This document shows, piece after piece, positions 50,415 through 54,382 of a DNA stretch of 59,109 nt. Within the stretch, counting starts at the first letter, position 1. Every line of letters starts with the position of its first letter. This DNA is from a virus (Duplodnaviria; Caudoviricetes): positions 1 to 59,109 of the IMG/VR virus record IMGVR_UViG_3300030102_001767; one strand, written 5' to 3'. A program made the translations under genes and the position numbers. The notes beneath the pieces were generated by a model that searched no databases, was not told the DNA's origin, and was given only the letters and a program-made list of their open reading frames with translations.

Positions 50415-50927
50415 ATGGCAAGACAGGAAAACGACTTTTATCCAACGCCTCCAGAGGCAACTCAATTACTATTAGATAATGAAACATTTGAAGGAATGGT
50501 ATGGGAATGTGCTTGTGGTGATGGTGCAATGGCTAATGTTCTTGAAGATAATGGTTACACAGTTGTAGCAACAGACCTTAATTATTATAATTATGGTATT
50601 CCAGGTAAAAACTTTTTAAATGCAGATATGAAGTTAGCACCAAATGTTTGTACAAATCCACCATTTAAAGTAGCACAGGAGTTTATACAAAAATGTATAG
50701 ACTTAAAGGTTGATAAGTTTGCTATGTTTCTTAGACTTTCTTTTTTAGAAAGTGTTAAAAGAAGGTCTTTTTTTCAAGAAAATCCACCAGTTAGAATTTG
50801 GGTTATGAGTAAAAGATTTACCTTGTGGAGAGGAGACCAAAAAAGAAACGGCAATGGTATTACTCCATACGCTTGGTTTGTGTGGGAAAAAGATAACGAA
50901 GAAAGACCAGTTTTATGGTGGTTGTAA
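50415..50927 (+). CDS. amino (N6-adenine/N4-cytosine) DNA methyltransferase
   Basis: DFYPTP, motif I WECACGDG, motif IV TNPPF, LRLSFLE, YAWFVW. Confidence 0.85.
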   Translation: MARQENDFYPTPPEATQLLLDNETFEGMVWECACGDGAMANVLEDNGYTVVATDLNYYNYGIPGKNFLNADMKLAPNVCTNPPFKVAQEFIQKCIDLKVDKFAMFLRLSFLESVKRRSFFQENPPVRIWVMSKRFTLWRGDQKRNGNGITPYAWFVWEKDNEERPVLWWL

Positions 50928-50928
50928 T

Positions 50929-50954
50929 TTAAATATATTAGGTAATATATTTAA
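50929..50954. promoter_or_regulatory. 26-bp palindromic motif TTAAATATAT-N6-ATATATTTAA (perfect copy)
   Basis: Lies between the two MTase genes, just before the RBS; same arms at 53281 and 59047. Confidence 0.7.
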
Positions 50955-50970
50955 TTTAAGGGAGAGAATT

Positions 50971-52494
50971 ATGAATGTTTTAAGTTTATTTGATGGTATG
51001 TCTTGCACTCAGATTGCACTAAAAAATCTTGGCATAAAAGTTGATAAATATTATGCAAGTGAGATAGATAAGTATGCAATAGATATAACAAGAAAAAATT
51101 TTCCAAATACGATACATCTTGGAGATGTAAAAAATATAAAAGGATCAGACTTTTTATATGACATAGACTTAATAGTTGCAGGCAGCCCTTGTCAGGGATT
51201 TAGTTTTGCAGGAAAGCAGTTGGCATTTAACGATCCTCGTTCTGCACTGTTTTTTGAGTTTATTAGATTGTTAAAAGAGCTACAACCTAAATACTTTTTG
51301 CTTGAGAATGTTCGTATGAAGAAGGAATATTTAGATGTTATATCGCAACAGGTGTCAGCAATATATCCAGAATGTAATAATGGGAGTTTATTTGGTATTG
51401 AGCCTATACTTATTAATTCAGCAAAACTCTCAGCTCAAAATAGAAATAGATTTTATTGGACTAATATACCTAATGTAGAGCAACCAGAAGACTTAGGTAT
51501 TGTTTTAAAAGATATAATAGAAGATAACTTTGTAACGGATAGAGATAAAAGCTACTGTATTGATGCTAATTATTATAAAGGAGGAAATCCAAAGACTTAC
51601 TTTAAAAAATCAAGAAGGCAATTAGTTTTTAATAAACCTAAAAAAGTAGGAATGAATGTTGAGGAAGTAAAAGTTAGAAAACATGAGGTAGATATTCCTA
51701 ATTTACAACAATTATTAAGAGTTTATAAATCTTCATCTAAAAAAACTCATAAACAAATAGCAAAAGAAATAAATATGCCTGTTACTAAGGTTGAGCATTG
51801 GTTCAGAACAGATACTAGCTTTGCTATTCCTAGCGATGACATTTGGTTCAAACTTAAAGATATATTAGGTATTGAAACTGATGTTTTTGATAAACAAATT
51901 ATGGAGTTTGAGTATAGAGATGGGGTGTATGAAACTAAACAAAGAGTTTATTCAGAGAATGGTAAATCACCTACCCTAACAGCTAGTAATAAAGAACAGT
52001 ATATTGAAACATACAGTACACCCAAACAAGTTGGAGTTGCCTCAGATATAAAAGGTTTTGATATAATAAAGAGAATATATTCTGAAAATGGTAAATCACC
52101 GACACTTACCACTATGCAAGGTGGACACAGAGAGCCTAAAATTGCTGTTAATTCTTACAGAGAAGTAAGAACAGAACAAGCCAAGAAAGAAAGAAAAAGA
52201 ATTAGAAAAGAAACAGGCAAAGACCATACACCTTTTAGAAGTAAAAAGTTGGTAGTAAGGGATGATAATAAAGTAGGAACAGTAACTCCTGCTTTAAATA
52301 ACGATCATAAAATATCTTTTAGCAGAGATGACTCAGAAGAACTAACATGGAGAAAGCTATCTGTTTTAGAATGTGAAAGACTCCAAACAGTTCCAGATAA
52401 TTATACAGAAGGTGTGTCTAACAGTCAGCGTTACAAAATGTTAGGCAATGGATTTACTGTAAAGGTTATCGAACATATATTAAAAAATATGTAG
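50971..52494 (+). CDS. C5-cytosine DNA methyltransferase (start reassigned to ATG 50971)
   Basis: AGGGAG RBS; motif I SLFDG, IV GSPCQ, VI LENV, VIII QNRNR, IX/X ECERLQT...LGNGF. Confidence 0.92.
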   Translation: MNVLSLFDGMSCTQIALKNLGIKVDKYYASEIDKYAIDITRKNFPNTIHLGDVKNIKGSDFLYDIDLIVAGSPCQGFSFAGKQLAFNDPRSALFFEFIRLLKELQPKYFLLENVRMKKEYLDVISQQVSAIYPECNNGSLFGIEPILINSAKLSAQNRNRFYWTNIPNVEQPEDLGIVLKDIIEDNFVTDRDKSYCIDANYYKGGNPKTYFKKSRRQLVFNKPKKVGMNVEEVKVRKHEVDIPNLQQLLRVYKSSSKKTHKQIAKEINMPVTKVEHWFRTDTSFAIPSDDIWFKLKDILGIETDVFDKQIMEFEYRDGVYETKQRVYSENGKSPTLTASNKEQYIETYSTPKQVGVASDIKGFDIIKRIYSENGKSPTLTTMQGGHREPKIAVNSYREVRTEQAKKERKRIRKETGKDHTPFRSKKLVVRDDNKVGTVTPALNNDHKISFSRDDSEELTWRKLSVLECERLQTVPDNYTEGVSNSQRYKMLGNGFTVKVIEHILKNM

Positions 52495-52611: not shown

Positions 52612-52692
52612 TTAGCCAACAATTATGGTAAACAAAGTCAGACCAATAAGTTGAATAACCATTGTCATTGATAAGAATTTAGTAAAAGTCAT
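52612..52692 (-). CDS. 26-aa hydrophobic peptide
   Basis: GAAGGAG RBS; MTFTKFLSMTMVIQLIGLTLFTIIVG. Confidence 0.5.
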   Translation of the reverse strand: MTFTKFLSMTMVIQLIGLTLFTIIVG

Positions 52693-52990
52693 ATTTTTCT
52701 CCTTCTAATTCGTTATTTAATTTTCTTCTAGTTCCACAAGCGATTGCACAATCAACATCAGTAAAATTACGATAATTTAATTCTACAGATGTTTCGTACA
52801 AGCACATCACAAGCAAACTTATTATGTTCACTAATAAGTGTTTTATTTCTTTATTGTTAATGAAGAACTTTCACTCCCATAGTTTCCTCCTTTAAAAAAA
52901 AGAAACTACCCAGTAGTTAAGTAGTAAATAAAAATAATAATTAGAAGATTGACTTTACACTTTTTTTCAGCATAAAAATTTAGCTAAATA

Positions 52991-53052
52991 TGGCATAAAA
53001 AAGGCAGTAGATCGAAATGAAGTTCATAGGCATTGATGCCCTTTTTATGCCA
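52991..53052 (-). ncRNA. stem-enclosed TIGR-like guide unit (unit 3)
   Basis: 16-bp stem with one G-U pair on the minus strand; its 30-nt loop reads TCA-ATGCCTATG-AACTTCA-TTTCGATCT-AC. Confidence 0.55.
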
Positions 53053-53086
53053 AACAAGTTAACTTATTGGGGAAAAAATTAACTTG

Positions 53087-53120
53087 CGTTCTCTAGTTCT
53101 GATGTTCATGTGGATTGACT
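53087..53120 (-). ncRNA. TIGR-like guide unit (unit 2)
   Basis: AGTCA-ATCCACATG-AACATCA-GAACTAGAG-AACG, followed by hairpin CAAGTTAA/TTAACTTG (53055-53086). Confidence 0.6.
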
Positions 53121-53266
53121 TATAACTCGTTGTCTAGTAGCTGCACGCACTCTTGTATTTTTTCTTTTTTATCTCTTTGTTTGTTTGTTTCACTTGAAAT
53201 AAAAATAAAACCTAAAAGAATCAATCCTGCTACATATAATTGTAATTTTTCTTGCCAATTTAACAT
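53120..53266 (-). CDS. 48-aa single-TM protein, not in supplied track
   Basis: AAGGGAG RBS; MLNWQEKLQLYVAGLILLGFIFISSE...DNEL. Confidence 0.65.
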   Translation of the reverse strand: MLNWQEKLQLYVAGLILLGFIFISSETNKQRDKKEKIQECVQLLDNEL

Positions 53267-53309: not shown

Positions 53310-53343
53310 GGTGGTTACTTAAAAGGCACTAAAAGTAACCACC
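53310..53343. terminator. 11-bp stem-loop just downstream of the tasA-like gene (terminator or processing/stability hairpin)
   Basis: GGTGGTTACTT-N12-AAGTAACCACC; no clear U tract. Confidence 0.5.
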
Positions 53344-53357
53344 TACCACTAATTAAC

Positions 53358-54176
53358 TTACTCAATGTCCTCCAAGTTAATAGGTGGTTTAATTAAATTA
53401 GTATTATTAAGTTTAGTTAAAGCATATGGTTCAGGTGGTGTTTTATTAAATTCATATTTAAACCAAACATAATGCAGATGACTTAAAAATAATTTTACTG
53501 TCCAACGCTTTGATATTGCATGAATATGAGCTGGAGGTAGCTCTCCTTTTTTATAATGACTATAAGCTATAGTATTTTTTTGATAATTTTTTTCTTCTAA
53601 TTGTTTTTTTGCATGGTCTTTATAACTTCCAGCATTATTTTTCTTTGTTTCAATTTGTTTTCTTTTAGAGTACAGCTTTCCATAAAAAGCATCTTCATGA
53701 TTACAAACCTTTACAAAACTTTCCCCTATTTTCCAAGCAAGAGTTCTTAATTGACCATTCCAAGGTCTTTTTTCTCCCTTGTTCCATTTTTGATTAGGGT
53801 TAAGACCAGCAAAATTCCATATATGACCAGCAGTAGGTGCTTTGTGTATATCTATATGTGACAACAGACCAGCAGTTATAACGCCACCAACCCCATAATT
53901 TGACATACACCATCTTCCAACTTTGTGAGATTGAGAATATTTAGTTAAGAACTTTTTTATTTCATATTCTAAAGTTTTATCTTGTTCTAATAAATAATTT
54001 AAAGCACTGCACTGTTCTTTAGAGCTAATGGCCTCCCTTAGTTGGTTGGCACTTCTTTTTCTATTTTCTTGTATTTGATAATATCTATCAACCAAAACTC
54101 TTATTTCTGTTTGGTTTAATTCTTTTGCTGTTTGAAGAATATCTCTTTCCATTCTTCTGACTGGTGTCATTTCCAT
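53358..54176 (-). CDS. IS110/Nop-domain protein without a nuclease domain; TasA-like TIGR-associated protein
   Basis: Coiled coil YYQIQENRKRSANQL, then WCMSNYGVGGVITAGLLSHIDI...HIWNFAGLNP...WNGQLRTLAW...SKRWTVKLFLSHL, matching the IS110 C-terminal/Nop fold; no N-terminal DEDD RuvC domain; flanked by guide-like units. Confidence 0.75.
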   Translation of the reverse strand: MEMTPVRRMERDILQTAKELNQTEIRVLVDRYYQIQENRKRSANQLREAISSKEQCSALNYLLEQDKTLEYEIKKFLTKYSQSHKVGRWCMSNYGVGGVITAGLLSHIDIHKAPTAGHIWNFAGLNPNQKWNKGEKRPWNGQLRTLAWKIGESFVKVCNHEDAFYGKLYSKRKQIETKKNNAGSYKDHAKKQLEEKNYQKNTIAYSHYKKGELPPAHIHAISKRWTVKLFLSHLHYVWFKYEFNKTPPEPYALTKLNNTNLIKPPINLEDIE

Positions 54177-54195: not shown

Positions 54196-54230
54196 CGCTC
54201 ATTATTATTGATGTTTATAACTCTTTGGCT
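54196..54230 (-). ncRNA. TIGR-like guide unit (unit 1) in the leader of the tasA-like gene
   Basis: AGCCA-AAGAGTTAT-AAACATCA-ATAATAATG-AGCG, ending 19 nt before the start codon. Confidence 0.6.
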
Positions 54231-54382
54231 TTAAATAATTTTTGATAGACAAATAAGAATTGTAAATAGTGACACTATATCTAATAATTTTTCCATTTTT
54301 TCTCTTCGTGAAGCTACTGTACGAAGATTTATATAAACTTAATAAATTATTTTTCAAATCAATAATCATCATAATCACTATT

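Follow-up and report, generated by a model that had tools for sequence, protein, structure and literature searches.

A hairpin-bounded guide cassette beside a phage tasA gene, half-way between the dual-repeat and stem-loop TIGR architectures

Our analysis of the 130-nucleotide (nt) stretch at positions 52991-53120 of a 59,109-nt phage-like sequence (the window, by which we mean the whole stretch of DNA that was analysed) suggests that it is the guide-RNA part of a marine phage TIGR-TasA system, the Tas protein of which lacks a nuclease. We hold this explanation, taken as a whole, with fair confidence. The cassette is a half-way form between two published guide architectures, in which hairpins bound the guides in place of tandem repeats. 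The observations set out below establish what the protein is, that the units are homologous to those of a normal array, and that the guides are under purifying selection and both stems under structural selection. All cassette coordinates refer to the minus strand, and the features are collected in Table 1.

The gene beside the cassette, on the same strand, encodes TasA. Searches of the PDB with phmmer recovered SpTasH (21kl_A, E 7.3e-11, aligning TasA residues 4-264 with SpTasH 50-302) and TasR (9mty_A, E 1.3e-9). An AlphaFold2 (AF2) model built from 22 homologues (pLDDT 87.1, pTM 0.84) had as its top Foldseek matches the TasH- and TasR-tigRNA complexes (E 7e-8 to 1e-6, template modelling (TM) score 0.56-0.72, probability 1.00), and the next matches after these were IS110-family recombinases. 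Pfam yielded only a sub-threshold match to Transposase_20, the IS110 C-terminal domain. The product has the coiled coil and Nop domain that typify Tas proteins and, since it contains no HNH or RuvC part, it is assigned to TasA. The family comprises 2470 proteins at E <= 0.001. The ratio of non-synonymous to synonymous substitution rates (dN/dS) of tasA lies between 0.095 and 0.105, being 0.095 between the window and the metagenome relative L081. An isolate-phage collection gave no DNA match to the window, and a protein search of that collection with TasA recovered only Salicola phage CGphi29 (25.6%) and Microcystis phage Mvi-JY20 (26.7%); a single-protein scan of viral contigs with TasA gave no match.

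Table 1. Positions and composition of the guide cassette and of the elements that accompany it
Feature	Positions	Strand	Composition or basis
Unit 2, linear tigRNA unit	53118-53087	-	UCA, AUCCACAUG, AACAUCA, GAACUAGAG, AACG
Unit 2, box-C-like UCA	53118-53116	-	UCA
Unit 2, spacer A	53115-53107	-	AUCCACAUG
Unit 2, loop repeat	53106-53100	-	AACAUCA
Unit 2, spacer B	53099-53091	-	GAACUAGAG
Unit 2, truncated 3' edge	53090-53087	-	AACG
Hairpin 1, between units 2 and 3	53087-53054	-	12 pairs, 10-nt loop; core CAAGUUAA/UUAACUUG; two G-U pairs (53087/53054 and 53078/53063)
Stem 2	53052-53037 paired with 53006-52991	-	16 pairs; one G-U (53041/53002)
Stem 2, 5' arm	53037-53052	-	inner end overlaps edge-repeat-like sequence, AGGGCAUCA in the window and AAGGUAUCA in L081
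Unit 3, entire 30-nt loop of stem 2	53036-53007	-	UCA, AUGCCUAUG, AACUUCA, UUUCGAUCU, AC
Unit 3, UCA	53036-53034	-	UCA
Unit 3, spacer A	53033-53025	-	AUGCCUAUG
Unit 3, loop repeat	53024-53018	-	AACUUCA
Unit 3, spacer B	53017-53009	-	UUUCGAUCU
Unit 3, AC	53008-53007	-	AC
Stem 2, 3' arm	52991-53006	-	UGCCUUUUUUAUGCCA; corresponds in alignment to the 3' half of the terminator and the U-tract at the ends of relatives' arrays
Unit 1, tigRNA-like, 5' of the tasA ribosome-binding site	54196-54229	-	GCCA, AAGAGUUAUA, AACAUCA, AUAAUAAUG, AGCG
Small open reading frame between tasA and the guides; stop abuts unit 2	53120-53266	-	48 amino acids, one hydrophobic helix
tasA	53358-54176	-	272 amino acids, coiled coil and Nop domain, no nuclease domain; phmmer, AF2, Foldseek
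Short hairpin followed by a U8 tract	52894-52918	-	AACUAC-UGG-GUAGUU, then UCUUUUUUUU; read from the sequence

The initial annotation, made from the sequence alone, had proposed guide-like units at this locus, and these proved to be tigRNA-type guides lying beside tasA on the same strand. Both full units fit the pattern UCA-N9-AAC(A/U)UCA-N9-A(A/C)(C/U)G on the tas strand. A box C of the form (C/U)CA agrees with the published CCA, and a box D in the form of UG is seen in the edge parts (AAUG, AGUG, ACUG) and not in the loop repeat (AAC). The corresponding DNA pattern YCA-N9-AACWTCA-N9-ANYG occurs twice in the 59-kilobase (kb) window, both times in the cassette and on the minus strand, against an expectation of 0.04; two occurrences were reached in 1 of 100 shuffles, a figure that is only indicative as the pattern was derived post hoc. 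The window showed no array periodicity (best value 0.45): there are two units only, 82 nt apart and with truncated edges, in place of the tandem units of a dual-repeat array. The extended stem that marks stem-loop arrays is present at unit 3, where it spans 16 base pairs (bp), and is absent at units 1 and 2.

The parse of these units was fixed by comparison with L001, the closest viral relative, whose TasA is 72% identical. At the same position, after the same small open reading frame (ORF), L001 carries 11 regular 34-nt units consisting of the edge AAUGAAUCA, N9, AACAUCA and N9. Its second unit (AATGAGCCA, ATGCCGATG, AACATCA, TTTCGATCG, AACGAATCA) shares its spacer pair with unit 3 of the window, 16 of the 18 spacer bases being identical. 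This shared pair both anchors the register and implies that the units of the window descend from a dual-repeat array. A search with the unit-3 pattern matched only the contig of L001. An earlier parse of the stem 2 loop, reading GCA, UCAAUGCCU, AUGAACUUCA and onwards, was dropped because it gave unequal halves and clashed with the register of the L001 array.

Folding of the cassette supported a structure specific to the tas strand. As RNA of the minus strand, the 181-nt stretch folded at -41 kcal/mol with a z-score of -4.31, a value matched by none of 200 shuffles, as compared to a z-score of -0.01 for the plus strand. When the elements were folded separately, hairpin 1 gave -9.7 kcal/mol (z -8.81) on the minus and -5.4 kcal/mol (z -2.60) on the plus strand, and stem 2 gave -23.0 kcal/mol (z -5.49) and -20.6 kcal/mol (z -4.24), respectively. 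Hence the strand bias is strong for hairpin 1 and for the cassette as a whole, whereas stem 2 by itself shows a modest bias. Of the 28 pairs, three are G-U pairs on the minus strand and become C-A mismatches at the same positions on the plus strand, which marks the structure as specific to the minus strand. These folds bear out several statements of the initial annotation: that a hairpin directly follows unit 2 on the minus strand, that the whole loop of a 16-bp stem is a third guide-like unit, and that the mismatches of both stems resolve as G-U pairs on that strand only. Its further suggestion that the locus mixes a linear edge-repeat guide with a terminal-stem guide likewise holds, with the qualification that the edges of the linear unit 2 are truncated. 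A single U separates hairpin 1 from stem 2.

We then considered the conservation of the cassette across homologous loci. The same two units, hairpin 1 and stem 2 are found in L081, L082 and L083, which are metagenome relatives with 88% identity in TasA; the sequence of a further relative, L084, ends before the cassette. The cassette recurs in no fewer than four contigs, which stem from different samples. The tasA genes of the window and L081 differ at 42.3% of their synonymous sites (0.423). The two units together differ at 3 of 64 bases (binomial P = 9e-12 against the synonymous rate) and their spacers at 3 of 36 (binomial P = 8e-6), making the guides about nine times more conserved than synonymous sites. 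Unit 2 accounts for one of these differences over 34 bases, and a close strain has the L081 state at 53098; unit 3 accounts for two over 30 bases, and differs from its counterparts in the relatives at 2 to 4 of 30. The guides are thus under purifying selection on their sequence.

The stems, on the other hand, are under selection for structure on the tas strand. The stem arms of the window and L081 differ at 10 of 56 bases, yet compensatory or G-U changes preserve every one of the 28 pairs. In a simulation placing 10 random substitutions in the stems with the same mix of transitions and transversions, a mean of 5 pairs was broken, and all pairs were kept with P = 1.9e-4. Over the three distinct cassette sequences 83 of 84 pair cells are paired, the one unpaired cell being in hairpin 1 of L083, as compared to 32-52% in slid controls. 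Changes on both sides were seen in three pairs (A-U to G-C and U-A to G-U in hairpin 1, and A-U to G-C in stem 2), and wobble changes in four pairs in all, one of them in hairpin 1. Compensatory changes of the kind that the covariation analysis proposed in the initial annotation would look for are seen in both stems. A strain variant of the window, 52996 T>C (one contig, depth 4.1), converts a U-A pair of stem 2 to U-G on the minus strand.

The wider set of relatives places the cassette among regular arrays. Periodic arrays were detected in 67 of 80 viral loci encoding relatives of TasA, with a period mostly of 36 nt (range 32-38 nt). Regular unit counts in L001, L002, L004, L102 and L134, whose TasA proteins are 55-72% identical to that of the window, are 7-11. 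Several spacer pairs are common to these five loci, for example TGGACTGCG/C(A/T)ACATATA, CCAAC(A/T)GCG/CAAAATATA and GGACAAATG/ATAAAAATA. On this basis their arrays look like inherited, conserved guide sets and not like the fast-turnover records of an immune system. In L002, L004, L102 and L134 the array closes with an edge that is truncated (AGUGA...), followed by a terminator hairpin rich in G+C and by AUUUUUUAU. It is with this terminator half and U-tract that UGCCUUUUUUAUGCC, the 3' arm of stem 2 in the window, aligns. The L001 array ends in UGCCUUUUUAUAGCC without a long partner arm, and its fold is ordinary (z +0.55). Screening the arrays of the 67 relatives for stem-enclosed units revealed none with at least 16 pairs around a unit. 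One candidate stem in L002, with 19 of 20 positions paired, was set aside because of its A+T-rich sequence, its position past the terminator and the lack of any unit inside it; the remaining candidates have 12-14 pairs. In a separate observation, one contig from a marine run matches the window over 52938-52978 and then enters a G+C-rich terminator resembling that of L002, which indicates that this phage type occurs together with relatives whose arrays end in the ordinary way.

The origin of its 3' arm raises the question of whether stem 2 is simply a 3' terminator or stabilising hairpin, with the last guide sitting in its loop by chance and the stems having no role in maturation. Besides the alignment of that arm with the terminator 3' half and U-tract of L001, L002, L004, L102 and L134, the position of stem 2 as the last element of the array speaks for this explanation. 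However, stem 2 departs from a Rho-independent terminator in having a 30-nt loop and a U-run that is sequestered inside the 3' arm; U makes up only 4 of the 8 bases that directly follow the stem, and a consensus terminator scan did not list it. A better candidate is the separate hairpin with a U8 tract at 52918-52894, about 75 nt downstream of stem 2, which is conserved in L081, L083 and L001. The same scan did not list this hairpin either, since it has only 2 G-C pairs; nevertheless, judging by its sequence and conservation, it is likely to be the intrinsic terminator of the tasA-guide transcript. Taken together, the departures of stem 2 and this better candidate lead us to read stem 2 as a probable derivative of a terminator that no longer acts simply as one. 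Furthermore, its loop consists of an entire guide unit, on which purifying selection is strong, and the internal hairpin 1, which is not at the array end, likewise shows compensatory change. The initial annotation had named a terminator with a non-conserved loop as the finding that would speak against it; the loop is instead conserved and homologous to a unit of the L001 array. Hence, we regard the terminator explanation as unlikely.

It is even less probable that the cassette is the inert remnant of a decaying array beside a TasA that is losing its function. Such decay could account for the shrinkage from the 7-11 units of the five relatives to two, for the truncated edge repeats and for the replacement of the catalytic histidine in the window and L081 (see below). 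It is at odds with a tasA dN/dS of about 0.1, with guides that have outlasted synonymous sites by the ninefold margin given above, with the retention of pairing through all 10 stem substitutions and with the persistence of the cassette in different samples.

Finally, the stem-enclosed unit might be a true box C/D small RNA (sRNA) guiding RNA 2'-O-methylation and not DNA binding. Box C/D sRNAs carry RUGAUGA and CUGA boxes that form kink-turns (k-turns), and their partners are L7Ae and fibrillarin. The resemblance that the initial annotation saw to these RNAs holds for the general shape, namely a terminal stem, two guide segments and a Nop-domain partner, and the published stem-loop tigRNAs were themselves noted as being like small nucleolar RNAs (snoRNAs; PMC12045711). 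It fails for the specifics, and we consider this explanation extremely improbable: the cassette has no RUGAUGA, CUGA box or k-turn in their usual definitions, neither a C/D family nor any other Rfam model matches it, the 9 neighbouring ORFs scanned against Pfam include no fibrillarin or L7Ae match, and the closest solved relatives of the protein are the DNA-targeting TasH and TasR. Elsewhere, upstream of a 21-amino-acid (aa) ORF, a sub-threshold Rfam match to SNORD20 was seen at 54308-54377 (-), with 24.8 bits against a gathering value of 43 and E 0.25; it is probably due to chance.

Having set these alternatives aside, we return to the guide-RNA cassette of a TIGR-TasA system and the question of how its guides mature. 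According to PMC13421893, SpTasH cuts the pre-tigRNA inside the edge repeat in a metal-independent reaction using Y289 and H296, and H296A is inactive. Minimal arrays were processed only with full edge repeats (PMC12045711). The stem-loop TIGR clades are described, in bioRxiv 10.64898/2026.09.09.750476, as being without the Y/H dyad and as matured by another, probably host, RNase. In a phmmer alignment Y289 corresponds to Y251 of the window and H296 to N258 (Asn258), so that the tyrosine of the dyad of dual-repeat systems is kept and the histidine is replaced. A MAFFT alignment of 123 proteins (those of the window, L081 and L083 along with 120 listed homologues) has histidine in this column in 119; the exceptions are tyrosine in L081 and P0001, asparagine in the window and leucine in P0079. 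L083 keeps the histidine, and L001, with its normal array, reads LGHAH. Accordingly, a near-invariant catalytic column occurs in three states (H, Y and N) inside one 88%-identical cassette clade. The 120 listed homologues are 262-339 aa long and all have the C-terminal motif P.PY.....LGHAH aligning to the SpTasH dyad. As a side observation, P0079 is, besides the window, L081 and P0001, the only member among those aligned without the processing histidine. It is plausible that the stems direct guide processing, given that they show compensatory change, that full edge repeats have been lost and that the histidine is substituted; the substitution fits a shift of maturation away from the Tas protein.

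A coherent sequence of events can be proposed on these lines. An ordinary dual-repeat TIGR array would have shrunk to two guides along with an atypical third unit before tasA. Each guide keeps the dual-repeat layout of (U/C)CA, a 9-nt spacer A, AAC(A/U)UCA, a 9-nt spacer B and a box-D-like edge start; the full edge repeats cut by Tas proteins are missing, and the 12-bp hairpin after guide 2 and the 16-bp stem around guide 3 stand in their stead. Guide 3 thereby has the published stem-loop tigRNA shape, with the 3' arm of its stem probably recruited from the terminator and U-tract region of the ancestral array. The tasA gene, the small ORF and the guides are predicted to be co-transcribed on the minus strand up to the short terminator near 52900. 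The stems, and not Tas-catalysed cleavage of edge repeats, would then set or protect the guide ends, through cutting by a host double-strand RNase such as RNase III or through exonuclease trimming up to the helices. A TasA dimer might bind each guide, the two spacers pairing with opposite strands of an 18-bp DNA site, so that transcription would be blocked. TasA is described in bioRxiv 10.64898/2026.09.09.750476 as an RNA-guided transcription repressor. The broader proposal, that this is an array caught in the act of turning into stem-bounded solitary guides, with a terminator recruited as an arm, maturation handed to host RNases and the histidine left free to drift, is one we put forward tentatively, as possible and still doubtful.

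Several observations weigh against this reading. Stem 2 by itself is almost equally stable on the plus strand. The observed covariation values were reached by 23 of 500 shuffles, a control that is itself weak with only three distinct cassette sequences. As L083 has both the cassette and the histidine, the cassette pre-dates the loss of the latter, and its architecture does not require that loss. In the tyrosine column, 101 of the 123 proteins have Y and the other 22 have F, so the dyad of SpTasH may have no exact counterpart in this TasA family. The C-terminal loop bearing the dyad is of full length (residues 244-272, low pLDDT), whereas it is truncated in the published stem-loop clades; a comparison of motif, loop length and array type found no sign of the truncated CTD5 loop of those clades. 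Nor is a stem-base CUU conserved: ACUUG in the window corresponds to ACCUG in L081, with CCUG in both L081 and L083, and the CUU inside the 3' arm of stem 2 sits near the loop and not at the base. At 12 and 16 bp, the stems are short substrates for RNase III. None of 20 public runs containing the stretch or part of it was recorded as RNA.

The search for targets also belongs on this side of the balance. We assumed a target of 18 nt made up of spacer A and the reverse complement of spacer B, a geometry inferred from bioRxiv 10.64898/2026.08.11.744272 and 10.64898/2026.07.30.739390. No matching site was found in the 59-kb genome itself, in both orders and with gaps of 0-7; the best contiguous sites had 4 (unit 2) and 5 (unit 3) mismatches out of 18, and the best over all arrangements had 3. 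In viral contigs the predicted unit-3 target gave 5 unrelated matches without shared context and the unit-2 target gave none, and bacterial and archaeal genomes yielded at least 120 target matches in unrelated taxa, where a rough estimate would expect tens by chance; we regard these matches as uninformative. Thus, no target rose above chance in the phage, viral contigs or prokaryote genomes. The authors of the published TIGR studies report the same difficulty in finding targets for 9+9-nt spacers. Given the strong conservation of the spacers and the spacer pairs common to L001, L002, L004, L102 and L134, the guides may serve fixed targets, probably regulatory ones, rather than adaptive immunity.

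The remaining elements of the neighborhood recur to differing extents among the relatives. Unit 1 is atypical in its 10-nt spacer A. An equivalent element is present upstream of tasA in all 7 relatives examined (L001, L002, L003, L004, L081, L083 and L084), and between the window and L081 its spacer B differs at 5 of 9 bases with all else identical; its status as a guide is uncertain. The 48-aa ORF ends with a UAA at 53122-53120, followed by a single G before unit 2. Its counterparts precede the array in L001, L004, L081 and L083, and in L081 the counterpart runs on into unit 2. More generally, tasA and the guides have on either side small ORFs that are preceded by ribosome-binding sites and reappear in relatives; these include a 21-aa hydrophobic peptide ORF at 54231-54296 (-) and two short ORFs downstream of the guides at 52679-52831 (-) and about 52615-52692 (-). 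Directly after the tasA stop lies an 11-bp hairpin at 53310-53343 (-), GGUGGUUACUU...AAGUAACCACC, with -16.1 kcal/mol and z -3.26 and without a U-tract; a similar one is found in L001, and it is absent in L081-L083. Downstream of the array, a 16-nt element at 52943-52958 (minus strand GTAAAGTCAATCTTCT, preceded by a run of A) is present in all 8 sequences of the group examined (window, L001, L002, L004, L081, L083, L102 and L134), also where TasA identity is down to 55%. Read on the opposite strand, it contains TTGACT, which is TTGACA in L002, L004, L102 and L134, and L004 has TATAAA 16 nt later. It could be a promoter directed antisense towards the array; a consensus scan did not list it in the window. 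The 59-kb phage-like genome also encodes RecT, a PD-(D/E)XK nuclease, a primase/helicase-like protein and a C5 cytosine methyltransferase. The latter (546 aa, 50415-52494 (+), Pfam E 1.6e-49) has a match spanning the whole protein with a long insertion, and its gene overlaps the last part of a 170-aa ORF without a Pfam match.

Published work assigns dual-repeat and stem-loop arrays to separate Tas clades. Here a TasA of the dual-repeat family stands beside both a linear and a stem-enclosed unit, and its close relatives keep an ordinary array and an intact histidine. This natural pair bears on whether a flanking helix can replace an edge repeat, on which RNase cuts and on whether the histidine is dispensable. 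If our reading is correct, it would provide a route by which stem-loop TIGR arrays, and perhaps box C/D terminal stems, could arise repeatedly from dual-repeat arrays, and the phages of L001 and the window would form a matched natural pair for finding the maturation nuclease.

Among the known systems, the proposed action of a host double-strand RNase on helices flanking the guide would be analogous to the maturation of CRISPR RNA precursors (pre-crRNAs) by RNase III in Cas9 systems, with the difference that the helices here are intramolecular, span 12-16 bp and involve no trans-activating RNA (tracrRNA). The archaeal and eukaryotic box C/D s(no)RNAs acting with Nop5 or Nop56/58 similarly have a two-part guide, closed by a terminal stem and bound by a dimer of Nop-domain proteins; unlike them, the cassette has no canonical boxes, k-turn, L7Ae or fibrillarin, and the Tas relatives that have been studied target DNA.

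The dual-repeat TIGR-TasA/TasH systems (FpTasA, and SpTasH of Salicola phage CGphi29; Faure et al. 2025, PMC12045711) share with it the protein fold and family, the order of edge, 9-nt spacer A, short loop repeat, 9-nt spacer B and edge, the box-C-like (C/U)CA before each spacer and the location in a phage beside tas, and close relatives such as L001 carry regular arrays. In contrast to these systems, in which 5-15 units are typical, the window has only two full units that are not in tandem, truncated edges, a hairpin between the units, a 16-bp stem round the last unit and Asn in place of the processing His. The stem-loop TIGR systems (PlTasA, BlTasA, CsTasR and PateTasR; PMC12045711, and bioRxiv 10.64898/2026.09.09.750476 and 10.64898/2026.08.11.744272) have a spacer pair flanked by a palindrome. 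Unit 3 resembles them in that its extended stem adjoins boxes C and D, as does the protein in being a nuclease-less TasA with an impaired Y/H site. The protein is set apart from the stem-loop clades by array type and motif, its family having dual-repeat arrays in 67 of 80 loci; further, the C-terminal loop is not shortened, the stem is on one unit only and lacks a conserved CUU at its base, the loop repeat is the conserved dual-repeat one, and the stem comes from the terminator region of the array.

Stem-enclosed, snoRNA-like tigRNAs have been published as the stem-loop TIGR architecture (PMC12045711 and bioRxiv 10.64898/2026.09.09.750476), and Faure et al. speculated that stem-loop arrays may in some cases, where the loop repeats are conserved, be intermediates (PMC12045711). 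Thus, a box C/D-like terminal-stem guide and repressors of the TasA type are already known and not new. No mixed array is described in the literature we covered, a scope that left supplementary tables and TIGRSafari aside. Within the same scope, what is apparently new is a single locus of the dual-repeat family that combines linear and stem-enclosed units with a terminator-derived stem and a substituted processing histidine.

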